DNA of 64,000 nt from Solirubrobacteraceae bacterium (GCA_025451035.1 JANWLE010000069.1:13483-77482), one strand, 5' to 3'. Positions 846-20,260 are shown, counted from the first letter of the stretch. Notes: a model not told the origin generated them from the letters alone. Made by a program: numbers and translations.

Positions 846-850
846 AGTGC

Positions 851-1893: not shown

Positions 1894-1899
1894 CAACCC

Positions 1900-1980: not shown

Positions 1981-2081
1981 GGGGCTCATCTCAACCCGCC
2001 GTGGGGCGTCGGCAAGTCGTCCCGCAAACGTTCGATCCCCGCGAAAGCGACACTGTCCCAGCCGTCGCATGACCTAGACTC

Positions 2082-3843: not shown

Positions 3844-3875
3844 GCGCGCGATCTCCGCTGAGGTGACCGGAGGGC

Positions 3876-4235
3876 TCAGTCCTGCGCCTCCTCCTGAAGC
3901 GGGCGGACCTCCACCGGTACCCGCGCTGCCCGCGTCGCCTTGCGGCCCCAGTCCAGCGCCGCGTCCAAGTCCGCTGCCTTGATCACCCAGAACCCGCCGA
4001 TGTGCTCCTTGCCCTCGAGGAACGGACCGTCGGTGGTGAGCACCTCGTCGCCCTCGAGTCGCAGCACGGTGGCCGTGCTCGAGGGATGAAGCCCACCCGC
4101 GAAAACCCATGTCCCAGTGCTCCGTAGCTCGGTGTTGAACGCCTCGACGCCGCTCATGATCTGCTGGATCTCGTCCGCCGGCGGCGCGTAATCCGCACCC
4201 TCGGCGTGGTACACGCTGAGTAGATACTGCTTCAT
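3876..4235 (-). CDS. YciI family protein
   Basis: ATG 4235 is preceded by [19 protein letters not shown]...[20 protein letters not shown] carries the YciI/DGPF signature. It lies directly upstream of the ECF sigma gene, a known pairing. Confidence 0.85.
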
Positions 4236-4506
4236 TTGACCGTCCTCCTTTAGAGGGTCTCGAGCCGGGCCCATCCCGGCCTCTCACCCCCTACACGAAC
4301 AGGCTCGGCCGAAATCGACAACGGCCTCGACAATACTTGCCGCCAGAAGCAGGGCGCCGTTGGCCCTGGTGCCTGCTTTCGCCCCGGGAGCAGGCATCCA
4401 GTCGCGAGTGACCGACACGATCGCAAGGGACGAGTTCGGGGCGTGCCGCTCGATGGGCTCCTTACGGTTGCTTCCCCGGGCGACGCGGTAGCCAGTGCGC
4501 CTCGCC

Positions 4507-5325
4507 TCAGATACTGACCTCGATGACTCGGTATGGACTGGTGACTCGGAATGCTTGTGGGTCTTCGTTGCCTTGGCGCAGGATGTGGAGGGCTTGCTCT
4601 CGCACCTGGCTGTAGCTGCCGGCCTGTTCTAGTAGTGGCCGTCCGGTGAGGCTCATGGGGTGTAGCTGCTCGTTCGCGACGAGGTAGGCCTCTGGGGATG
4701 AGGCGGTGACGCGCAGCTCACCATCATGGAACGACACGTGTGCGTTATGACGTGTGGCGAGCTCGCGGACTGCCTCGGTGTCGTGCCAGGCGAAACGGGT
4801 GGGCGTGACTCCGGTCGCTGTGGCGATCGCACGGCCGAACGTGCCGACCATAGCGTCGATCGGCCCGGTCGGCACCCACACCGAGAGCAGCGCACGTCCG
4901 CCGGGTGCCAGTACACGGATCATCTCGCCGAGAGCACGGTTCGCGTCGTTGGCGAAGATGACCCCGAAGACCGAGAGTGCTACTTCGAACGCGTGATCAT
5001 CGAACGGGAGCGCTTGCACATCACCGACGAGAAAAGACGCGTCGAGGCCCTCGCTTGCGGCCCTGGCGCGTGCGACATCGATCAGGCGGGCGGCCGCGTC
5101 GAGCCCCGTCGGGACCGCGCCCGACCGGGCGGCGAATATGGCGGCGTTGCCTGTGCCGATGGCGAGATCGAGCACCCGCTCGCCGGGCTGCAACTGGGCG
5201 AGTGACACCACGTGCTCGGCCACAGGCTTGAGTTCCACGGCGGTCTGCTCATACTGCCCGACGCCCCCCAATCGATCATCACGCCGCACGCTAAACCACA
5301 CCGCGAAAGAAGCCTGATCGATCAC
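4507..5325 (-). CDS. Class I SAM-dependent methyltransferase
   Basis: Motif I VLDLAIGTGNAA, then FDDHAFEVALSVFGVIF and LAPGGRALLSVW. Confidence 0.85.
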   Translation of the reverse strand: MIDQASFAVWFSVRRDDRLGGVGQYEQTAVELKPVAEHVVSLAQLQPGERVLDLAIGTGNAAIFAARSGAVPTGLDAAARLIDVARARAASEGLDASFLVGDVQALPFDDHAFEVALSVFGVIFANDANRALGEMIRVLAPGGRALLSVWVPTGPIDAMVGTFGRAIATATGVTPTRFAWHDTEAVRELATRHNAHVSFHDGELRVTASSPEAYLVANEQLHPMSLTGRPLLEQAGSYSQVREQALHILRQGNEDPQAFRVTSPYRVIEVSI

Positions 5326-5463
5326 GGGTTCATATCAACCCAAAGTCCGCGCTATTGGCCTGCGCGCTTACTGCTCAGCGATCAGCCGCACACGTTGCTG
5401 ATCGCCTCGCAGTTCTCGTCGCAGCACCACGCCCAAGCCGCCACCAACTCCAACATTCAACTC

Positions 5464-5498
5464 CAAATCTCAAATCTCAAATCTCAAATCTCAAATTC
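5464..5498. repeat. Heptanucleotide tandem repeat (CAAATCT)x4 plus one degenerate unit
   Basis: Four perfect CAAATCT units span 5464-5491, followed by CAAATTC. The repeat sits in a ~430-bp AT-rich non-coding patch. Confidence 0.9.
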
Positions 5499-5520
5499 AA
5501 TCCTTCATCTAGTCTCTAAT

Positions 5521-5735
5521 CACTTTCTTTGGTCCCGGTCCCACACCTCCAACTACCTCTGCTCTTCTTGTTTTCTTTTTTGTTATCCCACTTGTTGACC
5601 ATCCTTATCGAAAGCAAAGCTGAGAGAGGGGTGGTCAAGAACATCGAAGCGCAGCGAGATGAGGGATAACGGCAGACAAAAACCTATCTGCAGAGCCAAA
5701 AACCAGGTGCGGGACCGGGACCAAAGAAGTCCACG
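5521..5735. repeat. ~215-bp imperfect palindrome (long hairpin or MITE-like element)
   Basis: CTTTGGTCCCGGTCCCACACCT (5527-5548) is the reverse complement of AGGTGCGGGACCGGGACCAAAG (5705-5726), matching 21 of 22. Inner arm blocks also pair: CTCTGC/GCAGAG, GTTATCCC/GGGATAAC and TTGACCA/TGGTCAA. Confidence 0.8.
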
Positions 5736-5881
5736 AACCCGTCTGCTCCGTTGACAACCTTCCGGACGGATCCAGGACACTTGCCAGCAGCCGCGCGACA
5801 CTCACGAGGAAGCGGTGGGGTGAGGCATAGCGAACCGCTTGCGTCGACAGACCGACGAGGCATCTGCCGTTGTCCGTCACG

Positions 5882-6829
5882 TCAACTAGCGACTTCCGGC
5901 GGGACTTTTGGTAGCAACGGCCTTCCAAGGAAACGAGCCGGGTCCGGCTCGTTTGCCAGGAACCAGTTGGTAGTACGCACAGTATCGTCGCTGCCAACCC
6001 ACCATGCTAGATGCCACTCGCCCTCCCTCCAGATAAACGCCGCCTGCCGCAAATCGCCCATGACTAGCGACTCTGCCTGCGCGCCTGCCAATTCGGCTAT
6101 GCGCGTCGCACCATCCAGGGCTGGCAGGGCTTCCCGTGTGATATCGGCCGACGCGTTGATCGGGACGAAGCCGTCGATACGGGCCCCTGTCGGGCTCTCA
6201 CTTGGAAGCGTGAACTGAAACGTGATGATGCGGTCGCGATCAGGGTCCTTCGCATGGGTAGCGAGAGCCGCAATCCAGTCCATGGCAGCCAAGGCGGACT
6301 CTTTGCCGAGCTCCTCCAGGAAACCGCCGAGAAACTTCGTGGCGCCCCAAATGACTGGGATCACGAGGATCCACTCGAGGGGCGGGAGCTCGGACCAGCG
6401 GGCTACCTCTTGAATCTCGACCGGCGCATTGTCTTGAGCCACTGCGAAGGCGCGCTGGCCGAAGTTCCTAGGCTCCAGATTGATAGTCGCTATCGACGGA
6501 CACGTGTCCGCGACCGGCCGATCATCTCGCAATAGCGTCCATAGATCTGGATCCGCACCCACCGGGTGCAGCGTGCGGAACAGCCGGCCATAGAGGATCA
6601 GCTCGTCAGCGCCGTCGTCAGCGGCGACTACCTTCGCTGAATGCCATCGTCCACAGGGCGGAAGCAAGCACAGATGCTCAATAACAATTGGGATAAAGCC
6701 GCACTGAACTTGTTCGGCCATTCCATCGAGTGCGCTTCGTGTAAAGCGCACCATCTCGCCGTTTGACATCCGCGCGGGCCGCGTGCTCATGCCCTTGGCA
6801 ACAACCTCACCCTCACGCCACTCGACCAC
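5882..6829 (-). CDS. Hypothetical protein with a central hydrophobic helix
   Basis: 315-aa ORF, transcribed divergently from the QueC-like cassette. It has a hydrophobic segment LEWILVIPVIWGATKFLGGFL. I recognise no family. The start is uncertain (GTG 6829, or ATG 6790/6769). Confidence 0.55.
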   Translation of the reverse strand: MVEWREGEVVAKGMSTRPARMSNGEMVRFTRSALDGMAEQVQCGFIPIVIEHLCLLPPCGRWHSAKVVAADDGADELILYGRLFRTLHPVGADPDLWTLLRDDRPVADTCPSIATINLEPRNFGQRAFAVAQDNAPVEIQEVARWSELPPLEWILVIPVIWGATKFLGGFLEELGKESALAAMDWIAALATHAKDPDRDRIITFQFTLPSESPTGARIDGFVPINASADITREALPALDGATRIAELAGAQAESLVMGDLRQAAFIWREGEWHLAWWVGSDDTVRTTNWFLANEPDPARFLGRPLLPKVPPEVAS

Positions 6830-7079
6830 TACGCCTCACCCTAGCCAGGTTGCTGGTCTTCGTGTGATTGCTGAGATGTAGACCTTTGTCGCTCTGTGCA
6901 GCTGTCGCGTAGCCGCAGGTTGCAGCGGAGCCCAGGCATTTTGCCGCAGTCGCAGAGCTTTCTCTAGCGACGGACACCTCAAAAGGACCGGCATGCTTAT
7001 GTGGGCTCTGGCGGAGCAGTCCGCAGGAACCATGGCTCTCTTGCCCTTGCGTCTGACATCTGTGGTATATATCTTTCTA

Positions 7080-7098
7080 TTGACACTGACAATGTCAG
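7080..7098 (+). promoter_or_regulatory. Putative -35 element (TTGACA) abutting a 13-bp palindromic operator CTGACAATGTCAG
   Basis: TTGACA lies at 7080-7085. It is followed at once by a perfect 6+1+6 inverted repeat at 7086-7098, 16 nt before ATG 7114. This is a candidate site for the XRE-HTH protein encoded in the operon, and the mRNA may be leaderless or short-leadered. Confidence 0.4.
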
Positions 7099-7113
7099 AG
7101 AGGATAGCTGATC

Positions 7114-7722
7114 ATGGCAGACGGCGATTACTACGCGCGGAATCTAGCTCCCAGATGGAGGAAGGTCCGCAACACACTGTTGGGTCGTCATGATGTCCGT
7201 GTGGTTGGCGGCCTCGCTCGCGAAGCCTACGCTGAGACTATGCGCCTGGGTAACGGTGTCCCCGGCCTGAACGAGTTGTGCGGTGCGTTCGCGGCTGCGG
7301 CTCTGGACGGAGATCGTGACACGTGGACGGCGATCAACGAGGAGGTGCGGCGTGCCGTGAAACATCACGCGAATACCGAGATCGCCGCGATGGCGGGCCA
7401 GGCGCTGCTTGAGAACGACGATGGTCGACTTCGAGCCATGAGCGAAGACGAGCTTGCCGAGACGCTCGCCAAGGCCACGGCAGATCGCATCGCGCGGCAC
7501 CACTTCGCCAAGTGTCATCAAGGCCGGCTACCGGATACGTTCGCCAGCGCGAGCGAACTCCAGGCCCGCGCACGGGAGGCCTTGGCGTGCATGGACACGG
7601 CAGGCCTCGCGCGTGAGATGCTTCGCCACGAGGACGGCCGAGCTTTCAAGGCACCCGCGCGGCAGACCTCGGCGGCCGGCACCCAGCGACTCATCGGACG
7701 GACGCTTGTGGGTAGGTCGTGA
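7114..7722 (+). CDS. Hypothetical protein, first gene of the QueC-like cassette
   Basis: 202 aa, Ala/Arg-rich and apparently helical. Its stop overlaps the next start (GTGA at 7719-7722). Confidence 0.65.
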   Translation: MADGDYYARNLAPRWRKVRNTLLGRHDVRVVGGLAREAYAETMRLGNGVPGLNELCGAFAAAALDGDRDTWTAINEEVRRAVKHHANTEIAAMAGQALLENDDGRLRAMSEDELAETLAKATADRIARHHFAKCHQGRLPDTFASASELQARAREALACMDTAGLAREMLRHEDGRAFKAPARQTSAAGTQRLIGRTLVGRS

Positions 7723-9107
7723 CCGTGAGCGCGGCCGGAACCTGGAGGTCTCCGGCGGGTATCGAGTTTCGTGTCAGCGCGTCTCGCGCGTACCGGCTGG
7801 ACGATGCGATGATCGCCGCGACGTTCCGAGCGCGACTTCCTGAGCGTGTTGCAGATCTGCTCGATATCGCCATGGAGGTATATGCGGCCGACCGGCTGAC
7901 TACGCGCAGTCTTCGTGATCCGATCGGCCGCGGGTGGTGTCGCGAGCTTTCGCCGGTGATCGAGGTCCGCGACGTCGAGTTTTGGTCGTCTGACCAGGTC
8001 GCCGGCACATTGACGGGCGTCCTTGACTGGTTGACCGACGATTATTGGGAGCTGTGTTTTGTTCCGTTCCGGGGCCAGCGCTCTCACGCTGAGACGCAGG
8101 ACACCCTTTTCTCGTTCCGACCGGAGAACATTGCCGCTGTCGCCTGCTTCAGCGGTGGGCTTGACTCGTTTGGTGGTGCGGCGATCGATCTGGGTGAGCA
8201 GGAAGACCTTGAGCTTGTCCTCGTCGGCGCGAGCGGAACGAACCGCGCCCGCTCGCTGCAACGCGAGCTCTCCACAGAGTTGGCGACGCGTACGGGGCGC
8301 GTTCAGCCACTCCTGGTCAAGGCGAATCTCGTCGGCGCGAAGGCGCGGCCCCAGGATCGCCACCAGCGCACACGCGGGCTGCTGTTTCTCTCTCTCGCCG
8401 CCGCGACGGCGCTTGTCGCCGATGTCGACGAAATCCGCGTATACGAGAATGGCGTCGGCGCGATCAACCTTCCGTACAGTCATGGTCAGATCGGCGCTCA
8501 CATGTCGCGCTCAGCCCATCCCAAGACACTCGCGGCGATGCAACGTCTTGTGGATCTCATTGACGTGGCAGGGGTGCGCTTCACCTTGCCACGAATGTTC
8601 GACACTAAGGCCGAGCTCACCGCTCGAATCCCAGAGCAGTTCACGGACCTCATTAGGAGGACAGTGTCATGTGATACGTGGTCCTCCGATCGTCAGCCGC
8701 CGCCGCCGAAAGGTGAGCGCGTCCACCGCTGCGGCAGCTGCTCGAGCTGCATTCTGAGGCGGCAGGCGCTTTACGCCAGCGGCCGCGTTTCGCTCGACGC
8801 GCATGAGCGCTATCGCGCGAACGCCTTTGCGAGTAACCCTACTAATGCCGCCGCATTTTCACTACGTCTGATGCTCAACCAGATCGCCGAGCTTGACGCC
8901 GCTACTAGTGCCGAGCACCCATGGGCCGCGCTCGTTGAGGTGTTCCCGCAGCTCGTTGAGGCGCGGGACGCACTACTGAATCTTGGTCATGGCTCCAGCG
9001 TCGAAGACGAGCTGGTCGGACTTTACCGCCGCCACGCCGACGAGTGGCGTCGGGTGGAGGCACCGATTGTGGAACGGTACTTGGGGACGGTGCCGTCATG
9101 GGCGTGA
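7719..9107 (+). CDS. QueC-fold PP-loop ATPase with a ~140-aa N-terminal extension (QatC-like)
   Basis: PP-loop CFSGGLDSFGGA. The stretch GLLFLSLAAATALVADVDEIRVYENG resembles QueC GRNLLFLSFAA...VTG. TKAELTARI is also present. C-terminal Zn-cysteine cluster SCD...HRCGSCSSCILRRQAL. There are no que or tgt genes nearby. Confidence 0.85.
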   Translation: MTVSAAGTWRSPAGIEFRVSASRAYRLDDAMIAATFRARLPERVADLLDIAMEVYAADRLTTRSLRDPIGRGWCRELSPVIEVRDVEFWSSDQVAGTLTGVLDWLTDDYWELCFVPFRGQRSHAETQDTLFSFRPENIAAVACFSGGLDSFGGAAIDLGEQEDLELVLVGASGTNRARSLQRELSTELATRTGRVQPLLVKANLVGAKARPQDRHQRTRGLLFLSLAAATALVADVDEIRVYENGVGAINLPYSHGQIGAHMSRSAHPKTLAAMQRLVDLIDVAGVRFTLPRMFDTKAELTARIPEQFTDLIRRTVSCDTWSSDRQPPPPKGERVHRCGSCSSCILRRQALYASGRVSLDAHERYRANAFASNPTNAAAFSLRLMLNQIAELDAATSAEHPWAALVEVFPQLVEARDALLNLGHGSSVEDELVGLYRRHADEWRRVEAPIVERYLGTVPSWA

Positions 9108-10249
9108 GCGAGGCGGAGCTCCGTAACCCGAACCTGCCAAAGCGACTGCGCAACGCGCGACGCGACCGAGGCCTGACTCAGGAGGCTGTCGCTGAGCAGC
9201 TAGGGCTTGCCCGCACGTCGCTTGTGGCGCTTGAGAAGGGCGAGCGCTTCATCCGCCCAGACGAGCTCGTCGTGATGGCCCGGCTTTACGGTCGCCCGAT
9301 CGATGAGCTTCTCCGCCCAAGCGCTCCCGCCGACAACTTCGTCGGGCAGTTTCGCACGTCGCTCTCGCGCACAGCAGATGCCGACAAGCTTGAGGACGCA
9401 ATCCGCACGATAGAGCGTTACGCTGAGGACTACCGTGAGCTCGAGCGTCGCTCCGGCGTCGCTCCGGATCACCGGTACCCTGCGCCCTACTCGGTTGATG
9501 GGCTGTCACCCACGGCTGCGGCAACAGAAATCGCCTCGACTGAGCGCAATCGCCTGGGCCTTGGTGACGGACCACTGCCTAACCTCCGCGACATCCTTGA
9601 GACGAAGCTGGGGATCCGAGTCTTCTTTATTGAGCTGCCACCCCGGATTGAGGGCTTTTTCGCGTTCACACCGGAGACCGGCGCGTGCATTGCTGTGAAT
9701 GCCAAGCACCCGGTAGAGCGTCAACAGTGGACGATGGCGCACGAGTTCGCGCACTTCCTAACCCGGCGCTTGCGCGCAGAGATCACAGTGTCAAAGATGG
9801 AGCCGCGGGGCCGCACTCCTCAGCACGAGCGGCTCGCCGAGGCATTCGCCGGCGACTTCCTGATGCCGACCTCCGGCCTGACACGCGACTTCAACGCGAT
9901 CCGGCGCACAGGCGTGGAGGGTGTGACCCCGGGCACCCTCGTTGAGCTGGCCGCGTTCTATCGCGTTTCGTTTCAAGCACTGGTCGTCCGCCTGGAAGGA
10001 CTTGGCCTCCTGCCTCGTGGGACATTCGACATGCTCCAGCACGAGCGCTTCAGCGTCGCAGAGGCACGCCGCCTGCTCGGGCTATCTGCGCCGGAGCCCG
10101 ACACCCGTGTGTTCCCGGTGCGGTACGTGACGCTGGCTGTTGACGCCTACCGGGACGGCAGCATTTCGGAGGGTGCGTTCGCGCGCCTCCTCCTCCTCGA
10201 TCGTGTTACCGCGCGCGCAGTCGCGCGCACTCTCGAAAACATGGCATAG
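9098..10249 (+). CDS. XRE-family HTH fused to an ImmA/IrrE (COG2856) metallopeptidase
   Basis: ATG 9098 lies inside the last 10 nt of the upstream gene. HTH: LRNARRDRGLTQEAVAEQLGLARTSLVALEKGER. Zn motif: MAHEFAHFL (HExxH), followed by EAFAGDFLMP. Confidence 0.85.
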   Translation: MGVSEAELRNPNLPKRLRNARRDRGLTQEAVAEQLGLARTSLVALEKGERFIRPDELVVMARLYGRPIDELLRPSAPADNFVGQFRTSLSRTADADKLEDAIRTIERYAEDYRELERRSGVAPDHRYPAPYSVDGLSPTAAATEIASTERNRLGLGDGPLPNLRDILETKLGIRVFFIELPPRIEGFFAFTPETGACIAVNAKHPVERQQWTMAHEFAHFLTRRLRAEITVSKMEPRGRTPQHERLAEAFAGDFLMPTSGLTRDFNAIRRTGVEGVTPGTLVELAAFYRVSFQALVVRLEGLGLLPRGTFDMLQHERFSVAEARRLLGLSAPEPDTRVFPVRYVTLAVDAYRDGSISEGAFARLLLLDRVTARAVARTLENMA

Positions 10250-10251
10250 TA

Positions 10252-10806
10252 ATGGCGGCGCGCAGGCTCTCGATCGACGCCTGCGTGCTGATCAACCTGT
10301 GTGCGACCGGCCGCCTGCACGACATCGCCTCGAACCTGGATGCGTGTTTTATTGTCGTACAGGAGGTCGCAAGCGAGTCGTTCTACCTGTCTTCGACCGG
10401 TAAACGAGATGACAGGTTGACGCCGATAGACCTCGACGGTCTCCTCGCCAACGGGCTGATTGAGCTCACAAGTCTCGATGGTGACGAGTTCACGACGTTT
10501 GTCAGAGTGGCCGAGCGGCTCGATGACGGCGAGGCGGCAACGCTGGCGCTCGCGCTACACCGGGGTTTGCCCCTAGCCACAGATGATCGCGCCGCGCTAC
10601 GGTTGATCGATGCGGACTACCCGCGAATGGAGGTGCTGTCAACGTCGCAGATCATCCGGCGCTATTGCGAGCGAGCCCGTCTGTCGTCAGTCGACGTGGC
10701 CGGTTGTCTCAACGCGATCGAACAGCGCGCCAGCTTTGTCCCACCGGATCGTGACCCAGAGGTGGAGTGGTGGCGGTCGGCGCGGGAAAGCGTAAGGGGC
10801 GATTAG
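10252..10806 (+). CDS. PIN-like nuclease domain protein
   Basis: Starts 2 nt after the upstream stop. Acidic PIN-type positions: SIDACVLINL, DDGEAATLALA and LATDDRAA. PIN or DUF4411-type partners of COG2856 proteins are a known pairing. Confidence 0.65.
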   Translation: MAARRLSIDACVLINLCATGRLHDIASNLDACFIVVQEVASESFYLSSTGKRDDRLTPIDLDGLLANGLIELTSLDGDEFTTFVRVAERLDDGEAATLALALHRGLPLATDDRAALRLIDADYPRMEVLSTSQIIRRYCERARLSSVDVAGCLNAIEQRASFVPPDRDPEVEWWRSARESVRGD

Positions 10807-10976
10807 CGTCGCATCGGCTAGATCGCTGGCCTTGTCGCTAAATTCAGTGTCCAATGCATGAAGTCGATCGGCGAGGCCATCCGTACCTACGCCTCAGTGT
10901 CTTTGATGTGCAATCTCGCACAGCGTTCGTCGAGTCGTGCGCCATGTGCGGTACTTATGGGCGGTTACCAGTGCAG

Positions 10977-11255
10977 CTAGATCTGTACCTCCCCAGCCCT
11001 CACGGCCGCTCTCGTAGGGAACACGAACCGGTCCAAGCGATGGATGAGCCCGTCTCGCTCGAGCCTCATCAAAGTGTCGCCCGCAGTGGTTGGACTCCCG
11101 ATCACGCGGCTGATCTCATCGACTGCCCACAGACCCGGGTGATCTGAGTCGATCAGGATCGCCAGCACCATCCCATCGTCGAAGTCATCCCGTTCTCCCA
11201 CGTCGGTCGCAGGCGCTTGCTCTCGCGGTATGCGGCTACAGTGCCTCTCAGGCAT
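10977..11255 (-). CDS. Small putative winged-helix protein
   Basis: 92-aa ORF (HPGLWAVDEISRVIG...TLMRLERDGLIHRLDRFVFPTRAA). The start may be internal (ATG 11171). It competes with a 97-aa plus-strand shadow ORF. Confidence 0.45.
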   Translation of the reverse strand: MPERHCSRIPREQAPATDVGERDDFDDGMVLAILIDSDHPGLWAVDEISRVIGSPTTAGDTLMRLERDGLIHRLDRFVFPTRAAVRAGEVQI

Positions 11256-11464
11256 AGGAACTCACTTTCCTTTGTCTAGACCCCGGCATGGGCTGCACTC
11301 CCGTGTCGGGGTCGCTATTTACCAGCAACTACCCGACGATAATGCCTGACCTTCAAGAATCAACGCTGTCCACAGTTCTGGCACACAGCTGACACAGTTT
11401 GATAGCTGGCTACCTCTGAACGCGGATCAGCCCCGCACGCAACAGGTCACTCGTCCTCCTCGTC

Positions 11465-11499
11465 GATCACCTCCTCGCTGGTGGTTGAAGGAGGTGATC
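11465..11499 (+). promoter_or_regulatory. SD-sequestering hairpin: a 16S-3'-end mimic GATCACCTCCT paired to the SD AGGAGGTGATC
   Basis: 11465-11475 and 11489-11499 form a perfect 11-bp inverted repeat with a 13-nt loop. The 3' arm is an extended Shine-Dalgarno sequence 7 nt upstream of GTG 11502. Confidence 0.6.
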
Positions 11500-11501
11500 T
11501 A

Positions 11502-11561
11502 GTGCAGAACGAGCTGATAGTGATGCTGCTGACGATCGCGGTAATCCTGCGCTCACGGTAG
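11502..11561 (+). CDS. Candidate 19-aa hydrophobic peptide (type-I-toxin-like small ORF)
   Basis: The codons run GTG CAG AAC GAG CTG ATA GTG ATG CTG CTG ACG ATC GCG GTA ATC CTG CGC TCA CGG TAG. They translate to MQNELIVMLLTIAVILRSR. The extended SD AAGGAGGTGATC sits at ideal spacing, and a stem-loop at 11575-11599 follows. Confidence 0.4.
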   Translation: MQNELIVMLLTIAVILRSR

Positions 11562-11598
11562 CCAACGTGTCGCTGAGCGCCCGCCTCGTGTGGGCGCT

Positions 11599-11787
11599 TC
11601 AGTCGATGCCTTCCGCCGCCTCAATCTCGTCGATCTTGTGCCGGCGAACCCAACGGTTGAGCTCTATCGGGTCGAAGCGGATCTGCTCACCAATCCTGTA
11701 GTGCGGGATCAAGTGATGTCGTGCTCCAGCTTCAAGCAGAGTGGGCGCGATCCTCAGCCGTGAGCTGGCCGCGATAGGGTCTATCAA
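11599..11787 (-). CDS. Excisionase/AlpA-type (HTH_17) DNA-binding protein
   Basis: ...PIAASSRLRIAPTLLEAGARHHLIPHYRIGEQIRFDPIELNRWV matches the MerR-like excisionase HTH pattern. I chose TTG 11787, preceded by AAGGAG. The start is uncertain and the track ORF extends to 11904. Confidence 0.55.
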   Translation of the reverse strand: MIDPIAASSRLRIAPTLLEAGARHHLIPHYRIGEQIRFDPIELNRWVRRHKIDEIEAAEGID

Positions 11788-12283
11788 GTCGATTACACAC
11801 TCCTTGCCATGTCCGCCTCTCGTTCGTACGCCGTGTGGCGCTTTGAGAAGTGAAAATCGTTGGACATGTAGCCTGCTGACGCAATATCGTTGGATCATCC
11901 GCAACTACCTCCTATTTGTGACATGTCTCTGAGTCTTTGAGAGTCACTTCCAAAAACCAAAACCAAAACCGCCGACAACGGGCTTCCCTTTTTGCATGCG
12001 CCAGCGTGCTACGCTCGATCCTGTCGGCGGTTGGATAACCCCTTACATGTCCAATCTGGGGAACACAAGGCGTGCCGGCGGACCAGCCGATGCCGGAGTG
12101 GTCGGCCCTGGAAGGGACGGCGCTCTATGGCTGTGATTTGAACCGTTGTAACCCCCCTTCCCTTCCAGAAGTCGCACTCGCGTCTTCTAAGCGCCCGAGT
12201 GGTATCTAGGCCACACGCCACTCCCGCAAGGAGGCGGTTGTCGGCGCGGTGGCCTAGCCGCGAATCACGGTCACGCCTGGGCG

Positions 12284-12991
12284 GTGGGCTGGGTTATGCT
12301 CCACTGCATGCCAAACGGCCGCCACGCGTTCAATCCGCTCGATCGCGTCGAGCTTGGCCGCAGCGTTGGCCGAGCCCTACTTCTGAGCCCGTGTGAGGAG
12401 CTCCCTCCTGAGCGCTTTGACGGAGTTGGTATCTACGCGCTCTACTACCAAGGCGACTTCGATCCGTATCGACCCGTCGCGTTGGCGGGTTGCGAGTGGC
12501 CGATCTATGTCGGGCGTGCTATGCCTGCTGGAGGTCGTAAGGGCTTGATCGGGCTGAACGCGTCGCCGGGCCGCAAGCTCTATGAGCGTCTACGTCAGCA
12601 CTACAGCTCGGTGAAGGCGGCCAAAAACCTAGACGAGCGTGACTTCCGTTGCCGATACCTTGTCGTGGACGACATCTGGATTCCGCTCGCCGAGCGTCTG
12701 CTGATCGGCCACTACCGGCCCCTGTGGAACGGCGTTGTGGACGGCTTCGGTATCCACGCGCCCGGTGGTACGCCTGGGGGCACGACGGGTCGCGCTGGTC
12801 AGCAGAAGTCTGCTTGGGACACATTGCATCCGGGTCGATCATTCGCCAAGGGCCGGCCCACGCGAGTGAAGCTCGCGGAGATCCGATCACGAATCGCCAA
12901 GCACATCGAAGCGCACCCGCCCCAAGCGGGCGAGCCGCCAACCCTCGCCGATCCCCCAGCTCTCGAGGCTCCAGGCGAGCTCGAAGACTAG
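12284..12991 (+). CDS. Eco29kI-family (GIY-YIG) type II restriction endonuclease
   Basis: LPPERFDGVGIYALYY, WPIYVGRAMPAGGRKG, FRCRYLVVDDIWIPLAERLLIGHYRPLWNGVVDGFGIHAPG and SAWDTLHPGRSFA match the Eco29kI pattern. The start is uncertain (GTG 12284, or ATG 12296/12308). Confidence 0.85.
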   Translation: MGWVMLHCMPNGRHAFNPLDRVELGRSVGRALLLSPCEELPPERFDGVGIYALYYQGDFDPYRPVALAGCEWPIYVGRAMPAGGRKGLIGLNASPGRKLYERLRQHYSSVKAAKNLDERDFRCRYLVVDDIWIPLAERLLIGHYRPLWNGVVDGFGIHAPGGTPGGTTGRAGQQKSAWDTLHPGRSFAKGRPTRVKLAEIRSRIAKHIEAHPPQAGEPPTLADPPALEAPGELED

Positions 12992-13067
12992 GGTGAGTTA
13001 CGGCACAAAGTTGGCTCTAAACAGGCGCTAAGCGCGGACACTTGTAGATGATGGCGCGTAGCTTCGG

Positions 13068-14432
13068 TTGGCTATGACGTCAGTCAAAAGTTCCGCCGAG
13101 CTCCGCGGTAGTGTCACGACCATGTCGCTGGGTTTTGAGCTGGCACGGCGGCCAGTCGATGCCATCTCTTCCTCAGCCGCAGGCACCTCGATCGAGCTAT
13201 TCGCGGGTGGTGGTGGCCTGGCTCTAGGTGTTCACGAGGCTGGCTTTCAGCACTTGCTCGTGAACGAGCTGGACCGTCGCGCGTGTGAGACTCTCCGCGA
13301 GAACGTCGCGGAGGACTTCGAGGCTCAATCCAGTGACGGTCGCTGGCCGTTGCTCGCCGGTGATGTCGCCGCGATCGACTGGAGTCCGTTCGCCGGGAGG
13401 GTTGATCTGCTCGCTGGTGGCGCTCCCTGCCAGCCGTTCTCGCTTGGCGGTCGCCACCGTGGCGAGCAGGACAAGCGCAATTTGTTCCCCGAAGTCTTTC
13501 GCGCGATGCGTGAAGTGCGCCCTAGGGCGTTCTTGCTGGAGAATGTGCGTGGTCTGCTGCGCCAATCCTTCAGGCCGTACTTCGATTATATTCTCGACCA
13601 GCTACGGCAGCCGTATCTCTCGCCGAAGCGAGGAGAGTCCTGGGAGCGCCACAAGGCTCGCCTCGAGCGCCAAGGCTCTCCATATGGAGCGGAGAGGGAT
13701 CGCTATGTCGTGCACACGCTGCTCGTAAACGCGGCCGACTATGGCCTGCCGCAGAACCGCCACCGCGTCCTCATCGTCGGCTTCCGCGAAGACCTCGGCG
13801 TAGAGTGGACCTGGCCTGAGGCAACACACAGCCGCCGTGCGCTCGTATGGGCGAAGAAGAACGGGTCCTACTGGAGAGAGCACGGGATCCGCCCCGTGAC
13901 GGATCCAAGCGGTCCCAACGGCGAAGGCGGATCCCATCGCGAGCCGCCAGAGCTACGCTGGCGAACTCTTCGAGACGCGATCAAGGGACTTCCTGAGCCA
14001 GTCGATGGGAAGGAGCATCCCAGGATCGCCAACCATGTCGGCATCCCCGGTGCTCGCCTGTATACAGGGCATACGGGCAATCCGCTCGACTGGCCCGCCA
14101 AGACGGTCAAGGCCGGCGTGCACGGCGTGCCTGGTGGTGAGCACGTGCTGCTCCGCGACGATGGCACCCACCGCTATCTCACCGTCCGCGAGTGCGCCCG
14201 ACTACAAGGCTTCCCGGACTCCTACCGCTTCACGGGACCTCGCAGCGAGGCAATGCGCCAGATCGGCAACGCCGTACCGGTTCCGCTTGCTCGACTTATT
14301 GCCGTCCGCGTAGCCGATAAGCTCGCTGGAACACTACGTCCAGCGCATGCAGACAACAACGGAGCGTCGCCGAGATCCCGCTGTCACCTCCCGGATGATG
14401 GCAGCGGTCAAGCACAAGGACTCACGGGCTGA
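13068..14432 (+). CDS. dcm: DNA (cytosine-5)-methyltransferase
   Basis: Motif [13 protein letters not shown], motif [14 protein letters not shown], motif [10 protein letters not shown], motif [15 protein letters not shown], then [15 protein letters not shown] and motif [10 protein letters not shown]. The start may be ATG 13074. Confidence 0.92.
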
Positions 14433-14790
14433 GCTTGCCCTTCGCCGTGAGCTGCACGCTCGCGGTGTGCGCTATCGCCTACACGCCAGAGATGTCTTTG
14501 GTTGTCCGGACATCGTCGTGCGAAAGCGCGGCGTCGCCGTGTTCGTCGACGGAGACTTCTGGCACGGCAACGCCCACAACAGGCGGGGCCTGAAAAGCCT
14601 CGAGGACCTGTTCCCCAGCAACAAGGAGTTCTGGGTGCCGAAGATCCACAGAACGATGGAGCGCGACCGCGAAGTCACCGCCACCCTGCAAGCCAATGGC
14701 TGGCAAGTCGTAAGGCTCTGGGAGGAAGACGTCCTAGAAGCGCCCGCGCTCGCTGCGGACAGGGTCGAGCGCCTCATACGAGGTCGATAG
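14347..14790 (+). CDS. vsr: Very short patch repair endonuclease
   Basis: [33 protein letters not shown]...GCPDIVV...[11 protein letters not shown]...W..KI..N..RD. It overlaps the 3' end of the methyltransferase by 86 nt in another frame. Confidence 0.85.
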
Positions 14791-14878
14791 CTTGCCTCGC
14801 TGGGCACCACGGCCACCCCTGGCTGTGGTGTGGAGGGCACCCTCTGGATCACGGGCCGACCGTACGCAGGAACAGGAC

Positions 14879-15112
14879 ATGGCCGCTGGTGGACCATCCG
14901 CTAGAAAGGTCAGATTGACCGACGGTCGAACGGCGATTGGCTCCATACGCCTTCGACATCTCCCCAAAACACGCCGTGTCTATGCCTATCTGCGCTATAG
15001 CCGGAACGGACAAACGATCACGAGGTATGTCGGCGACGCCACCGCTAACACGCGCGGCGAAGCTCTCAAAAAGGCTTGGGCCGAAGCGCGCCGCAGAGGT
15101 CTACTAAGCTAA
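14879..15112 (+). CDS. Small hypothetical protein downstream of vsr
   Basis: ATG 14879; 78 aa (…RRVYAYLRYSRNGQTITRYVGDATANTRGEALKKAWAEARRRGLL). A terminator follows. I recognise no family with confidence. Confidence 0.45.
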   Translation: MAAGGPSARKVRLTDGRTAIGSIRLRHLPKTRRVYAYLRYSRNGQTITRYVGDATANTRGEALKKAWAEARRRGLLS

Positions 15113-15136
15113 GACTAGCGCTGGGTGTTAGGTAGG

Positions 15137-17026
15137 CTATGCGCCTGGCGCGCCAGGCGTTTCTGTTCGCCCGGGGCGGCTTGCTGCCGCCTCACCAAGC
15201 TTACTCTTGCGCGCAACATAAGTAATGAAGTCAGCATCCCCAATCCTATTTCGATCGGGCATGCTTGTGGCACGAGCCTGTATTTGGACTAGATCTGCGT
15301 ATACGTCTATTTCAGTAAAACCAGCGTTTCGCAGTAGTGAGAAGAGCTCTCCGTGCGAGAATGCGTGCAGGACTAGATCAGAGCCTCTCAATCTGCGGTC
15401 GTCAAGTTCACCGCGGTCACTAATCGCCGGCACGTTCCTAAAGAATCGCCAGTGAACCATCCGAGCGCCCTTATCCACGTGAGCCGGATACCCACGTATC
15501 TTTTGGCCTCGGTACATCACGTCACCTTGGGTAGTGGCAGAAAACTCCTTGACTGGATCAAAGTTAATACTTCGCGCGTTATCTAGTATGGCCTGAAAGT
15601 TCCGCTCATCAATGACTAGCAGGCCGTCCCCTACTAGTGATTCACGAAACGTCTTTAGGCACTGAAGTCGGCCAGCCGCGTCATCCACTAGGCATAGCGA
15701 GTTCCCAAGACAAAGAAGCGCGTCAAAGCGCAGATTTCCAGGCAACTGGTCTGGAAGGTCCTCCCACAGAATACTCATAAAATGGAGGTTTACGTCCTGG
15801 CTCTCGGCATACTCGAGCGCCTGCTGGGCAAGTAGTCCGTCTACCTCATTGGGGAACACTTGAAAGTCGTGGCGCATGAGAAACACGCTGTCGCATGCAA
15901 TACCAGCCGCAGCGTCAAACACCGATCGCTTACCGTCGAGGGTCTCAAGGAGGAACCTGGCCATCCCACCTTCCTCACGCGCCTCTGGCTCTACATAGTT
16001 GATCCACTCTACCGCCAGCTCTCTGTTTACCAGATCGAGGCCTGGCGCAACCTTCTCTAGAGGGATGGCCTCCGCCAAGACCTTCGTGACAAACTCACTG
16101 ATCTTCTCATATGTAGTGTTCTCTCTTTGGCTATCTCCCGGAAACCACATGCCCAACTTCGTGATGCCAGTGGACGTGTCGGGTTCAAACATAACAGCAA
16201 AATTCTTCCACAGGCAGACATCAGCGTTGCCAATCCCGTACTCTTGACGAAGAGCGTTTGCGCGGGCGACATCAATCCACGTCACATCAACGTCGTGATC
16301 CTGGTGCCAGCGGTAGAAGCTCTGGTAGTCGGGACGAGCATGCCGCCAATCCTTACTTAGGTCGCCTCGTGAAGTCGTCAACACGCGGCGGTCGTGCTTT
16401 GGATTGCCACGCTCACCAAGACTTTCGGCATGGGCGTCGAGATACCACGCATACTGAGTCATGTACTCGGCCGGGCGATGGCTATCCACGCCAATATAGG
16501 CTCCCCCACCGTTACTAAAAAAGCGGGCGAACCAAGGCCGCATCGCGGTTGTGTTGGTGACTGGATAGCCGGGCCCAGTGAGTCCCCCAACGATGTCGCG
16601 CGTTGCCTGTATCTGGGCTGTAGCGAAGCTACGAAGAAACTCGCGCTTGGGCTCTTGGGTGCAGGCGGCGATATCGCGGACGTGCGACATCATCGCTGGA
16701 ACACCCCACGTGATGGACCACCGCGTAAACATCATCACGGCTATGAGGACCGAGATATCAAAAGCGACCTCGGTAAACGCGTTATTGCCAAGAGGCGCTA
16801 GCTGCTGCCTTTGGGCGAAGGCAAGAAGGAGTCTGGCGACTACGGTTGTGACCAGCGGAATGGCAAAATCACGTGTCCAGCCACGAGTGGCAAGGCGGTG
16901 GAGCCACCAGTGCCAGACTGATCTCAGTAGCCGGTGTATTGGCTGAGGCAGGTGGTGCCCTATGCGCCTGATCCAGGAAGACTGACGACGGATTTGAGCA
17001 TCCTGAGCGGTTTCAATAGTCGACAT
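15137..17026 (-). CDS. Membrane-anchored protein with an unknown central domain and a C-terminal GNMT-like class I SAM methyltransferase
   Basis: The likely start is ATG 17026 (MSTIETAQ...). Two hydrophobic segments: FAIPLVTTVVARLLLAF and VAFDISVLIAVMMFTRW. The C-terminus resembles glycine N-methyltransferases: VFDAAAGIACDS, FDALLCLGNSLCLV and DGLLVIDERNFQAIL. GC is lower than in the core, by eye. Confidence 0.7.
   Translation of the reverse strand: MSTIETAQDAQIRRQSSWIRRIGHHLPQPIHRLLRSVWHWWLHRLATRGWTRDFAIPLVTTVVARLLLAFAQRQQLAPLGNNAFTEVAFDISVLIAVMMFTRWSITWGVPAMMSHVRDIAACTQEPKREFLRSFATAQIQATRDIVGGLTGPGYPVTNTTAMRPWFARFFSNGGGAYIGVDSHRPAEYMTQYAWYLDAHAESLGERGNPKHDRRVLTTSRGDLSKDWRHARPDYQSFYRWHQDHDVDVTWIDVARANALRQEYGIGNADVCLWKNFAVMFEPDTSTGITKLGMWFPGDSQRENTTYEKISEFVTKVLAEAIPLEKVAPGLDLVNRELAVEWINYVEPEAREEGGMARFLLETLDGKRSVFDAAAGIACDSVFLMRHDFQVFPNEVDGLLAQQALEYAESQDVNLHFMSILWEDLPDQLPGNLRFDALLCLGNSLCLVDDAAGRLQCLKTFRESLVGDGLLVIDERNFQAILDNARSINFDPVKEFSATTQGDVMYRGQKIRGYPAHVDKGARMVHWRFFRNVPAISDRGELDDRRLRGSDLVLHAFSHGELFSLLRNAGFTEIDVYADLVQIQARATSMPDRNRIGDADFITYVARKSKLGEAAASRPGRTETPGAPGA
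15142..15167 (+). terminator. Intrinsic terminator for the R-M/vsr operon
   Basis: Perfect palindrome CGCCTGGCG/CGCCAGGCG (15142-15159) followed by TTTCTGTT. It overlaps the last codons of the convergent minus-strand gene. Confidence 0.5.
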
Positions 17027-17323
17027 GGCGCGGCACCCTACAGCATCGGTGCGAAAGATGCTAGTCGCTGGTACGGGTCGGCTAAACGGAATGGTTGGGA
17101 AGAGGGACGTAAGTGGGTGGTTGCGCCCGCGCCGCGCGAAGTGATCACTGAGGCCGAGAGCGACAGCGATTGGCCGCGCCCACCGTGCCAGCCTTAGGTA
17201 ACCCAAGATCCTGTATTGCAGCAGGGTTATTGCGCCGGAGTTAGCCGCCGCCGTCCATCATGTGCGTGGTGCGGCTCGAGACATATCGGCGGATACGTCG
17301 CCGGCATGAACGGCATCGTGAAC

Positions 17324-18256
17324 TTATCGGAGATCCAGGTCCCCGCTGTTGTCTGGATCGTGCTCAAAGCGTCCGAGGTCATCCTCGCGATGTCGGAGGG
17401 AGATGACGTGGGCGCGGCGGTCAGTTATCTCCCAAACAAAGAATTGACGACGCACCTCGCCTCTGCGGACGCCGCTGGAACCTGCGGCGGCTACGTATAG
17501 CGGGCCGTGATCCCACTTTTGCAATCCAAACTTCATGATCGTTGTTGCGTGTTGATGACCGTGCAACACCAGCGATGCCCCGAGTTCTACTAGACGTCTG
17601 ATTACTATTGTGGCGTCAACCGTAACGCTCACAACCAGCCGATCACTGTCGCCTGGATTAGCTGTCGCTGGCAGCACGGGCCGCGACCCCACAGGCAAGA
17701 GGTGATGATGTAGTACGGCCACGACTGTGTGCGTATCGGCGCTGATTCGTGCCTCACGCATACGGGCGCTGAGCGCATCCAGCTGTCGTTCGCCGACTAG
17801 CCCGAGACCTCTTTGGGCTTCGCTCTCAAGCTGGCATGAATCTAGCGCCACGATGGCCAATGGCTTCGAATGGTCATGTTCGATGATATGTACGGCCGGA
17901 AGGTCGACTGATGCTCCGAGCGCTTGCGCCAGCAACTTGTAGTCGTAGAGCTTGTCAGCCGGCTTAGCATCCCAGTCCACATCGTGGTTGCCGGGCACCA
18001 TGATGACGGATGTTGCGCCTGCCGCGCGAGCCAGTTGCTGGAGCTGCAGGCGTGCCTCGGCGCGCTCGCCTGCTGCTCGAGTCGTAAAGATGTCGCCCGA
18101 GAGAATTAGCGCATCGAAGCTAAGAGGCACGCAGTTCTCTTCCAGCCCTAGAAGAATCGCCTCGCGGAAAGTTCGTGCTGTTGGTGGCCGTCCATCTTGA
18201 CCAAAGGCATGATCGCGCCCGAAGTGGATGTCGGATAGCTGCAGCAGACGGTACAT
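17324..18256 (-). CDS. Calcineurin-like metallophosphoesterase
   Basis: All signature motifs are present: LSDIHFG, SGDIF, PGNHD, LHHH and HGHQH. Confidence 0.85.
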   Translation of the reverse strand: MYRLLQLSDIHFGRDHAFGQDGRPPTARTFREAILLGLEENCVPLSFDALILSGDIFTTRAAGERAEARLQLQQLARAAGATSVIMVPGNHDVDWDAKPADKLYDYKLLAQALGASVDLPAVHIIEHDHSKPLAIVALDSCQLESEAQRGLGLVGERQLDALSARMREARISADTHTVVAVLHHHLLPVGSRPVLPATANPGDSDRLVVSVTVDATIVIRRLVELGASLVLHGHQHATTIMKFGLQKWDHGPLYVAAAGSSGVRRGEVRRQFFVWEITDRRAHVISLRHREDDLGRFEHDPDNSGDLDLR

Positions 18257-18377
18257 AAGAACTCGGATAGGCCCCGCCGAGACCCGCGATGCTAGCTACA
18301 CGAAGACCTCGTCGATAGAACGCTTGATGTTGGGAGCACACGGCGCGCAAGTCAAATGCTAAAACGCGTACGATCTG

Positions 18378-19979
18378 ATGCTGATGAAGCAGGTACCCGA
18401 CCTCGTATCCGTCCGCGAGATGGTCGACATGGTCCAGAATGGACAGCTCGCAATCCCTGAGTTCCAGCGGCCGTTTGTTTGGAAGCCTCCGCAAGTAGCC
18501 GACCTGCTTGTGAGCGTGGCGCGACGGTGGCCGATTGGGACACTGCTTCTCTTGGAGGGACCACAGGACTTCGCGGTAAGGCCATTGGCTGAGGCGCCAG
18601 AGGTCACGAGCGCAACGCTTCTGCTCCTTGATGGTCAGCAGCGCATGACGGCTCTCTACCGAGCCCTCGGCGACCACGTGGGCGACGAGGTCTACTACGT
18701 CGATTTTAACGCTCTGCGAGAAGACAACGAGCTGTCGGATGAGCATATTAAGGTTCGGCAGCGGAAGGCATTTGTCCGACAATACCCCGATGTTGCGGCT
18801 CGCGCCCGAAGCGGGTATGCGTTGGTAGGTGAGGTTGCGGACCCAGACCAATTCCTCGAATGGCTCCGCCAGGATCCCGCTGAAATGAAGGACTTTTCTT
18901 CCCTACGTAATTCGCAGCTCGCAGGACTTCAGGATTACTCGGTTCCGGCTGTGCGGCTTTCGCGCGATATCGGCTTTGAGGCGCTAGCCAAGATCTTTGA
19001 GACAATCAATCGTACGGGTGTGAGGCTGGCGACCTTCGACCTAATGGTCGCCCGCATGTATCCTCGAAACTTCGATCTGCGTGCGAAGTGGACCGCTGCC
19101 GTCGAGACACACGAGGATCTACGGCGATTCGCGGTAGAGGGTATGGAGATTCTGCGCCTGATTGCTCTACGTGAGCTGCTGCGCGAGATACGCGAGCAAG
19201 ATCTCCGCCGGGTAAAGGGCGTGCGCCAAGGAGACGTCCTCGGGCTCGATGCAGCGGTTGTCAAGCAAGACTGGGACGCATCCGTTGCTGCCTACGTCGC
19301 GGCGCTGGGCCTGGTCCGTAAGCGTTGCGGAGTGGTCAATAAGGCGCTTATGCCTGCTTCGACGATGTTGCTGCCCCTTGCCGCGACCCTAGCCGACAAC
19401 CGCGCGGGCGCTGAGCCGGCGGCGGAGCGGTTCTTTTGGGCTGCCGGTTTGGCACAGGTTTATGCCCAGGGCGCTAATACCCAAGCTGTGCGCGACGCGC
19501 GCGAGCTGGAGCGCGAGCTTGAAGGTGGAGAACCACCAGAGGTCGTATGTCGCGCCGAGGCAGACCAGGAGCTACTGCTGGATTCACGCCGCCGCAATGA
19601 GGTGCTATTGCGCACGCTTAGCTGCTTGTTGGTGCGTAATGGCGCGCGCGACTGGCTCACCGGACAGCCGCTTATCGATTTGGAAGATGAGCCGGTGGAG
19701 AGCATGGTGTTTCCAGAATCATGGTTGCGGTCCCGCGGAATCGTGCCAGATGGGTTGCTGAACTGGACGGTCCAGTCAAAGGAAACGGACGCGCAGCTTG
19801 CCGAGATGGAGCCATCCCAACTAGTGTCTCGTGGCGACCTTGTTCTCGCGGCAGTGGAGTCACAGCTGGTCGATCTCGCCGCACTACGTGCTAATGACTG
19901 GCAACTGTTTGCTGACAGCCGCGCACGGGCAATGCGTGGGCTTCTAGAGGTTCTGCTCCAGGATGTGCGCCAAATCTAG
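18378..19979 (+). CDS. DUF262 (ParB-like/GmrSD N-terminal type) domain protein without a recognisable His-Me nuclease domain
   Basis: IPEFQRPFVW and LLLDGQQRMTALY are the DUF262 signatures. There is no histidine in the last ~160 residues. Confidence 0.85.
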   Translation: MLMKQVPDLVSVREMVDMVQNGQLAIPEFQRPFVWKPPQVADLLVSVARRWPIGTLLLLEGPQDFAVRPLAEAPEVTSATLLLLDGQQRMTALYRALGDHVGDEVYYVDFNALREDNELSDEHIKVRQRKAFVRQYPDVAARARSGYALVGEVADPDQFLEWLRQDPAEMKDFSSLRNSQLAGLQDYSVPAVRLSRDIGFEALAKIFETINRTGVRLATFDLMVARMYPRNFDLRAKWTAAVETHEDLRRFAVEGMEILRLIALRELLREIREQDLRRVKGVRQGDVLGLDAAVVKQDWDASVAAYVAALGLVRKRCGVVNKALMPASTMLLPLAATLADNRAGAEPAAERFFWAAGLAQVYAQGANTQAVRDARELERELEGGEPPEVVCRAEADQELLLDSRRRNEVLLRTLSCLLVRNGARDWLTGQPLIDLEDEPVESMVFPESWLRSRGIVPDGLLNWTVQSKETDAQLAEMEPSQLVSRGDLVLAAVESQLVDLAALRANDWQLFADSRARAMRGLLEVLLQDVRQI

Positions 19980-20260
19980 GTTACAACAGGCAACTCAGAC
20001 TAGCCTGTAGTCAACAACGCGGCGGTGACCCGCAGTGCCACTCAATGAGAATACTGACCGGAAGCTGGCGAAAGTCAGGGTCCTGATAGGTTTAGCTGCC
20101 GCTGGAAGCGCCCCCAGGTTTAGGACCGAAGACCGATCCTTGGTCCTAAACCCCAGCAAAAACCCCGCAAACTGCGGCCTGTTTGGGTCTACTGCGTAGG
20201 GAGCAAACTACAGGTAAAAGTCCTCCTCTTCAGCGAATTCATGTAGTTCCTCAAGGGCCG

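Follow-up and report, generated by a model that had tools for sequence, protein, structure and literature searches.

A candidate type I toxin-like locus in an actinobacterial defense island: a 19-codon hydrophobic ORF preceded by a Shine-Dalgarno/anti-Shine-Dalgarno hairpin

INTRODUCTION

Ibs toxins are peptides of only 18 to 19 amino acids. The type I systems txpA/RatA, bsrG/SR4, and fst/RNAII of Bacillota are formed by convergent, 3'-overlapping transcripts, and tisB, dinQ, and zorO are SOS-regulated genes with trans-encoded or divergent small RNAs. Fozo et al. described type I toxins as shorter than 70 amino acids, with a transmembrane region and a polar C terminus, and reported that many type I loci are duplicated and that very short toxins are routinely missed by gene callers (PMC2887945). 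Among the main determinants that T1TAdb gives for type I toxin mRNAs are Shine-Dalgarno (SD)/anti-SD stem-loops and 3' terminators (PMC8594479). Of individual systems, aapA1 has SD-sequestering hairpins (PMC6733600), translation of dinQ is activated by removal of the first 44 nt (PMC5066626), and SR6 is a 3'-overlapping antitoxin (PMC5848175).

Each of the described type I toxin families is found in narrow lineages, mostly of Proteobacteria and Bacillota (PMC5367252). The word Actinobacteria is absent from three surveys of type I systems (PMC8594479, PMC5367252, and PMC2887945), and further full-text searching turned up no actinobacterial example. This agrees with the statement, in the original prediction for the locus described here, that type I systems are barely documented in Actinomycetota, although such an absence is not proof. 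That prediction placed a type I toxin-antitoxin-like locus in a stretch of 64 kb of DNA, referred to here as the window. We compared the locus with a second, diverged copy and weighed the toxin-like reading against other explanations.

RESULTS AND DISCUSSION

Setting and anatomy of the module

The window has about 65% GC and resembles an actinobacterial chromosome. Its synteny, with gyrB-gyrA and genes for a PBP2-like transpeptidase and a PknB-type PASTA kinase, supports an origin in Actinomycetota. An island of lower GC content lies at roughly 5 to 20 kb. Pfam matches within this island (about 7100 to 19980) include an Eco29kI-type endonuclease, a C5 methylase, Vsr, a metallophosphatase, GmrSD, an XRE/M78 regulator, and a weak QueC-like protein. 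No integrase was found among the island ORFs of the window that were scanned. An exact-protein look-up yielded a JGI metagenome contig (L001) and a Logan assembly (L002), both of which are 100% identical to the window and therefore add no comparative information. A protein of the window island with a weak DUF3368 match was recorded only for these identical copies.

The features of the locus, in window positions, are as follows:

11400 to 11598, + strand: whole module, flanked on one side by the Xis-like gene and on the other by the 92-aa gene's promoter region; present in the window and in a second locus (L008/L009)
11446 to 11464, + strand: helix-extending 5' flank, with predicted pairing to the start codon and codons 2 to 6
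11465 to 11475, + strand: anti-SD arm, GATCACCTCCT, equal to the 3' tail sequence of 16S rRNA (see below)
11476 to 11488, + strand: hairpin loop, 13 nt; 57% identical to the loop of the second locus, which is 1 nt longer
11488 to 11499, + strand: SD, AAGGAGGTGATC, 12 nt, containing the 3' arm of the hairpin; GGAGG core 7 nt 5' of GTG 11502
11502 to 11561, + strand: mini-ORF of 19 codons with a GTG start and a TAG stop, encoding MQNELIVMLLTIAVILRSR
11572 to 11603, + strand: GC-rich stem-loop past the stop codon, a putative bidirectional terminator without a U-tract, common to the mini-ORF and the convergent Xis-like gene
11599 to 11898, - strand: Xis-like helix-turn-helix (HTH) gene, 99 aa, convergent; its 3' end overlaps the terminator stem
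10977 to 11255, - strand: 92-aa gene, function unassigned, with a conserved C terminus (...GLIHRLDRFVFPTRAAV); other flank of the module

An inverted-repeat search returned a stem of 11 bp in which GATCACCTCCT (11465 to 11475) and AGGAGGTGATC (11489 to 11499) are 100% complementary, with 13 nt between them. We take GATCACCTCCT to be the 3' tail of 16S rRNA and AAGGAGGTGATC to be the 12-nt complement of that tail. The original prediction had the hairpin arms, loop, SD, GTG 11502, 19-codon ORF, and TAG in place base for base. It also proposed a further stem-loop at 11575 to 11599; this is present, and folding gave it a slightly wider extent (11572 to 11603). The longest mechanical ORF in the frame of the mini-ORF has 26 aa and begins at GTG 11481 inside the hairpin loop, and the aligned position in the second locus, read by eye, has no start codon.

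The encoded peptide (GRAVY 1.14) has an acidic/polar N terminus, a hydrophobic core at residues 5 to 16 (LIVMLLTIAVIL; mean hydropathy, 3.34), and an RSR tail. The core, at 12 residues, is short for a membrane span.

The exact 11-mer occurs twice on the two strands of the 64 kb, and both occurrences are the hairpin arms. Across both strands of the 64 kb, just two start codons have 12 nt complementary to the 16S tail in front of them, and the ordinary genes of the window have SD matches of at most 9 nt. The 171-nt region folded more stably than shuffled sequences, with z values of -3.8 for the + strand and -3.2 for the - strand. The window contains five distinct perfect 11-bp hairpins compared with about 0.8 expected. 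A perfect 11-bp hairpin by itself is not rare here; the distinguishing point is that its arm is an SD and goes together with the ORF.

The other perfect hairpins of at least 11 bp with short loops (20117 to 20166, 25307 to 25339, 42748 to 42786, and 43192 to 43228) are probably terminators. The second 12-nt match to the 16S-tail complement, AGAAAGGAGGTG (56873 to 56862, - strand), lies just downstream of gyrA, within a short GGACCA/TGGTCC hairpin (56858 to 56880, - strand) in which it is situated in the loop and on the 3' side. Only very short ORFs, one of them a 14-codon ORF with a TTG start, are found 3' of this site.

Flanking genes

The original prediction described the neighboring gene as convergent and excisionase-like. 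Its convergent position is as described, and its identity as an excisionase depends on an HTH_17 match that is below threshold (20.7 bits; cutoff, 27; E = 5e-4) and a TIGR01764 match with an E value of 0.028. The mini-ORF is separated from the Xis-like stop codon by 37 nt, and read-through from the Xis-like gene would be antisense to the mini-ORF. AGGAGGT is found 8 nt 5' of the ATG of the Xis-like gene (11898). The family to which the Xis-like protein belongs (about 30 proteins) shares an N-terminal motif, HG-R-RGGH-(D/G)xxC, ahead of the weak HTH_17 domain. Gene calls for the Xis-like gene differ, with a 99-aa product in L002 and a 37-aa product in L001.

The 92-aa protein, for which nine homologues were found, had no match in Pfam or NCBIfam. 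The 5' leader of its gene contains a conserved stem-loop in the - strand RNA (11279 to 11313; stem, GACCCCG...CGGGGTC) just upstream of its SD. The leader stem-loop is also found in L004, L007, L008, L010, L138, and L139, with loops that vary. Its stem shows apparent covariation: GACCCC/GGGGTC in the window, L004, and L008; GGCCCC/GGGGCC in L010; and GGCCC/GGGCC in L007 and L139. A promoter-like sequence, TTGAYT-N16-TATCGT, precedes the 92-aa gene (11336 to 11363, - strand) and is kept in the window, L004, and L008. A box, GYRTCARC...GTGC (11380 to 11399), lies at a fixed distance from the 92-aa start in all loci and may be an operator.

Conservation at a second locus

Homologues of the 92-aa protein led to a 53-kb contig of a JGI metagenome (L008/L009), in which the same module, in diverged form, lies between the same two flanking genes. 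The island of this second locus (650 to 12237) contains an integrase, MerR, JAB/ThiF (Bil-like) genes, an ion channel, and a type I restriction-modification system. By their predicted gene content, both hosts of the module are defense islands, and the Xis-like gene together with the 92-aa gene looks like a shared island backbone.

The mini-ORF of the second locus encodes MQNELILMLLLIAVILRSR and has the same length, start, and stop as that of the window. The two loci are 100% identical from the SD through the start, and identity is 91% (10 of 11 positions) in the anti-SD arm and 90% in the ORF. It falls to 70% in the terminator spacer, 57% in the loop, and 26% in the upstream flank, which is unalignable apart from the arm. 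The nucleotide identities of the flanking genes are 72% (Xis-like) and 64% (92-aa gene). On this comparison, the module is the best-conserved piece of the locus, and conservation tracks its predicted functional parts.

The ORFs differ at six nucleotides in five codons, with three synonymous changes, one valine-to-leucine replacement, and one threonine-to-leucine replacement. When all six frames were compared, the proposed frame had the fewest residue changes (two, both to leucine) and the most synonymous changes (three). The other five frames, including every frame on the - strand, had three to five residue changes each. In simulations with six random substitutions, the probability of no stop codon and at most two residue changes was 0.066, which decreased to 0.012 when both replacements were also required to be strongly hydrophobic; with only two independent sequences available, these statistics (P of about 0.01 to 0.07) are thin. 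Both of these sequences come from metagenomes, with adjacent JGI sample numbers (3300035174 to 3300035177).

The invariance of the start and SD and a pattern of substitutions that favors the proposed frame partly support the toxin-like small-ORF reading. The original prediction had proposed a search of relatives for the hairpin and the small ORF, and had named a hairpin that is kept beside an ORF that is not as an outcome that would count against it. In the one independent locus both are kept, with the SD and start invariant.

Predicted sequestration of the Shine-Dalgarno sequence

For the minimal SD hairpin, the calculated energies are -18.4 kcal/mol (window) and -23.6 kcal/mol (second locus). 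Minimum free energy folds of both loci show an extended, imperfect helix around this hairpin, in which the GTG start and codons 2 to 6 pair with the 5' flank. The helix-extending 5' flanks are largely nonhomologous between the two loci. Opening the GGAGG core in the presence of the arm was calculated to cost 10.3 to 11.5 kcal/mol in the window and 13.4 to 15.0 kcal/mol in the second locus. For a transcript that starts in the loop, and so lacks the arm, the cost was 2.7 and 6.8 kcal/mol, respectively. Thus, the SD is predicted to be sequestered by the anti-SD arm. An RNA thermometer was considered and rejected because of the stability of the stem, which has 10 to 11 GC-rich pairs and an energy of -18 to -24 kcal/mol.

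Transcript ends, promoters, and the question of strand

The stem-loop past the stop codon has an energy of -22.0 kcal/mol on the + strand and -17.9 kcal/mol on the - strand in the window, with corresponding values of -20.7 and -17.1 kcal/mol in the second locus. Its stability as + strand RNA, greater by about 4 kcal/mol in both loci, derives from G.U pairs, and these modeled energies are mild evidence that the stem-loop serves a + strand transcript. The stem is kept in the second locus despite a different inner sequence, and a U-tract is absent. The SD hairpin (11465 to 11499) was evaluated separately as a Rho-independent terminator, and a terminator scan gave no match there. After its stem, the + strand reads TAGTGCAG and the - strand reads GACGAGGA, with no T-run in either. 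Because terminators without U-tracts have been reported in actinobacteria, the missing T-run of the SD hairpin is not decisive.

A promoter scan of 10800 to 12300, which covered sigma-70-type promoters, revealed no sigma-70-like promoter ahead of the ORF, and no TANNNT hexamer was seen by eye on the + strand in the 100 nt upstream. Neither the promoter scan of 10800 to 12300 nor Rfam gave a recognizable dedicated antisense promoter or small RNA. The only evident source of antisense RNA is the convergent Xis-like transcript that shares the stem-loop.

These results bear on the possibility that the conserved element is a noncoding - strand RNA, such as the 3' untranslated region of the Xis-like mRNA, a second terminator, or a small RNA ending at the hairpin, and that the ORF and SD are by-products. 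The palindrome forms equally well in - strand RNA, and the region is directly downstream of the Xis-like gene. Its 90% nucleotide identity is higher than that of the coding genes on either side, a pattern also seen with structured RNAs. The absence of a + strand promoter would also fit, as would a weak promoter-like motif (TTACCG-N16-CA(C/A)TAT) that lies within the ORF of both loci on the - strand and was recognized by eye only. However, the substitutions, three of them synonymous and two conservative, best fit the + frame, and a 12-nt SD ideally spaced from a conserved start would be a striking coincidence. The lack of a T-run on either strand after the hairpin and the greater stability of the 3' stem-loop as + strand RNA also argue against a - strand element. 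We consider this explanation unlikely, though far from negligible. It is partly compatible with the toxin-like reading because a type I system would hold both a + strand mRNA and a - strand RNA.

A small membrane peptide built like a type I toxin

We tentatively read the module as a translated small membrane peptide that is under SD-sequestration control and is built like a type I toxin, and we give this reading not quite an even chance. By analogy, a type I toxin gene residing in a mobile defense island would have this layout. As for the type I toxin-antitoxin-like locus that was originally proposed, the hydrophobic peptide, the anti-SD arm, the 3' stem-loop, and the convergent neighbor all stood up to analysis; a promoter, an antisense RNA, and similarity to a known family did not emerge from the searches described here. 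The four features that stood up agree with the type I mRNA determinants of T1TAdb (PMC8594479), and the peptide, with its hydrophobic segment and charged C terminus, fits the toxin profile of Fozo et al. (PMC2887945).

In the mechanism that we propose, the module would be a self-contained mini-gene on the + strand, with a 19-residue product that is probably inserted in the membrane. Translation would be held off by an intramolecular mimic of the SD/16S duplex, formed by the 10- to 11-nt anti-SD arm and the 12-nt SD, and a looser extension of the helix may also cover the GTG start and the first codons. The mRNA would end at the stem-loop common to the convergent Xis-like gene. The peptide would be made only after the 5' arm is removed or bypassed, whether by processing, by an alternative start site, or by unfolding, and the freed 12-nt SD could then support efficient initiation. 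The likeliest counteracting RNA would come from antisense transcription that enters from the Xis-like gene through the shared stem-loop or that arises within the ORF. We infer the transcription, translation, and toxicity of the module, as well as its antitoxin, from this layout.

A more specific proposal is that the module represents a new actinobacterial type I family, in which a 19-aa membrane toxin is silenced by an exact intramolecular copy of the SD/16S duplex and is controlled by an antitoxin from the 3' end, or read-through, of the Xis-like mRNA and no dedicated small RNA is involved. This seems to us quite improbable. If true, the control of the toxin, and hence retention of the island, would be wired to the excision/regulatory gene of the island.

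It is also possible that the peptide is a small membrane protein that is translated and nontoxic, serving as a modulator of a membrane protein or as a mobile-element accessory, with the SD hairpin setting low or conditional translation. Actinobacteria are known to have hydrophobic mini-proteins that are not toxic, KdpF among them; a mention of KdpF is found in PMC10730256. All that speaks for coding and for SD sequestration fits a nontoxic product equally well, and no antitoxin RNA was found with the promoter scan or Rfam. The module is single copy in the window, with no tandem duplication seen there, whereas many type I loci are duplicated (PMC2887945). However, there is no codirectional partner gene, and the ORF is enclosed between a convergent gene and a terminator. 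An extreme SD under extreme sequestration is more typical of products that need to stay off, and the site is a mobile defense island. A nontoxic mini-protein therefore appears fairly unlikely to us.

A leader peptide or attenuator was a further candidate for the mini-ORF. It was rejected, as no codirectional gene lies downstream; on the + side the mini-ORF is followed by the stem-loop and then by the convergent Xis-like gene. The next genes downstream of the module in the second locus are likewise on the opposite strand.

Distribution of the module

The gene pair also occurs at three more distant loci (L007, L137, and L139), which do not contain the module. Between the Xis-like stop and the conserved box GYRTCARC...GTGC there are 203 nt in the window and 248 nt in the second locus, compared with 13 to 33 nt in these three loci, and the box keeps a constant spacing of 128 to 140 nt from the 92-aa start in the loci compared. 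This pattern identifies the module as a self-contained indel, and in these alignments it behaves like an autonomous cassette of about 170 to 215 nt. A profile search with the Xis-like family recovered 30 proteins. At three loci from this family (L141 to L143) the Xis-like gene is followed directly by codirectional genes, with no module.

The palindrome might instead act as a DNA site, bound as an operator by the Xis-like or 92-aa protein or used by the island for recombination or transfer. Genes for two putative DNA-binding proteins lie on either side of this perfect 11-bp inverted repeat, and its arms are kept while its center is not. However, the palindrome is absent from L007, L137, L139, L004 to L006, and L010, all of which encode the same protein families. 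Furthermore, the spacing of the 10-bp arms differs by 1 nt between the window and the second locus, and a DNA site leaves the conserved ORF, start codon, and SD spacing unexplained. We regard it as very improbable.

The module was sought in wider collections. A BLAST search in distant mode with 11256 to 11600 gave no match in plasmids and phages, and a tblastn search with the 92-aa protein gave none in plasmids. Among viral contigs, the hairpin pattern matched three loci, all of them unrelated, and two ORF-based patterns matched none; of the two flanking-protein profiles, one had no match there and the other had one distant match. A metagenome scan with a pattern of the SD plus the ORF returned six chance matches in a collection that does not include L001 and L008. 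The hairpin pattern matched at least 117 loci in a genome scan; among the matches listed, none precedes a related ORF, and most fall inside long open frames.

Some of these arm patterns recur. A version with 10-bp arms and an 11-nt loop (GATCACCTCCGG.ACN5GGAGGTGATC) is found in many actinomycetes (L039, L042, L070, L103, L115, L116, L128, L133, and L134) inside a clearly conserved protein-coding gene, and a second recurrent group, with a 22-nt loop, occurs in Gemmatimonadales. The recurrence of the arm pattern inside a conserved gene indicates that exact anti-SD/SD palindromes are often coding coincidences.

A chance combination in a decaying intergenic remnant, with the arm stemming, for example, from a former coding sequence for an acidic tail, might be suggested by the - strand frame, which is open for 58 codons without a start codon and reads ...SEEVIDEEDE*, and by the frequency of GAGGAGGTGATC-type strings inside the genes of high-GC genomes, but it is scarcely credible given that the second locus, read by eye, has ...GGDLRA in place of the acidic tail, that conservation peaks exactly on the arms, SD, and ORF, and that the features are jointly rare. 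The same open frame (EEVIDEEDE) was evaluated as the tail of a frameshifted gene and rejected because it is not conserved in the second locus, where the substitutions are mostly nonsynonymous.

Searches of Pfam and NCBIfam at E values up to 10 with the extended ORFs of 26 to 27 aa as queries, which have low power for such short peptides, returned no toxin family, and Rfam had no match for the region at the gathering threshold or at E values up to 1. With no profile or covariance-model match to a known toxin, antitoxin, or RNA family, the module is not assigned to the Ibs, Hok/Gef, Ldr/Fst, TisB, ShoB, or TxpA families, and its likeness to type I toxin genes is one of architecture only.

Significance and comparison with known systems

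Many actinobacterial mRNAs are leaderless, and weak SDs are a feature of the phylum. If validated, the locus would extend the type I kind of system to a phylum with these different translation habits. The locus also illustrates that a 60-nt gene annotated by no caller can be the best-conserved element of a defense-island backbone. If the module is only a terminator or a nontoxic mini-protein, its interest would be local.

Of the systems described, Ibs/Sib of the Enterobacteriaceae resembles the module in having a very short hydrophobic peptide that is encoded in an intergenic region and missed by gene callers (PMC2887945). A hypothetical antisense RNA at the locus described here would overlap the whole ORF, as Sib does. 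In contrast to Ibs/Sib, the host is an actinobacterium, the C terminus of the peptide is basic (RSR) rather than aromatic/polar, there is no sequence similarity, the window contains no tandem duplication, and no Sib-like antisense gene was identified.

The convergent arrangement resembles that of yonT/SR6 of Bacillota, in which the toxin gene and its partner transcript converge and overlap at their 3' ends/terminator (PMC5848175). Convergent systems of this kind in Bacillota are found on prophages/mobile elements. However, the partner of the mini-ORF is the protein-coding Xis-like gene instead of a dedicated small RNA, and any overlap beyond the shared stem-loop would require hypothetical read-through. 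The tisB, dinQ, and zorO mRNAs are inert until they are trimmed at the 5' end. Similarly, the SD of the module is predicted to be accessible only after its 5' arm is removed, although nothing comparable to the small RNAs or SOS regulation of those genes was seen here.

The local hairpin that would sequester the SD is shared with aapA1/IsoA1 of Helicobacter pylori (PMC6733600). The module differs from that system in that its arm is a perfect 10- to 11-nt copy of the 16S tail, paired with a 12-nt SD. With a 5' arm that is literally the 16S tail sequence, the module would, if validated, provide a very clean and minimal model for SD sequestration.
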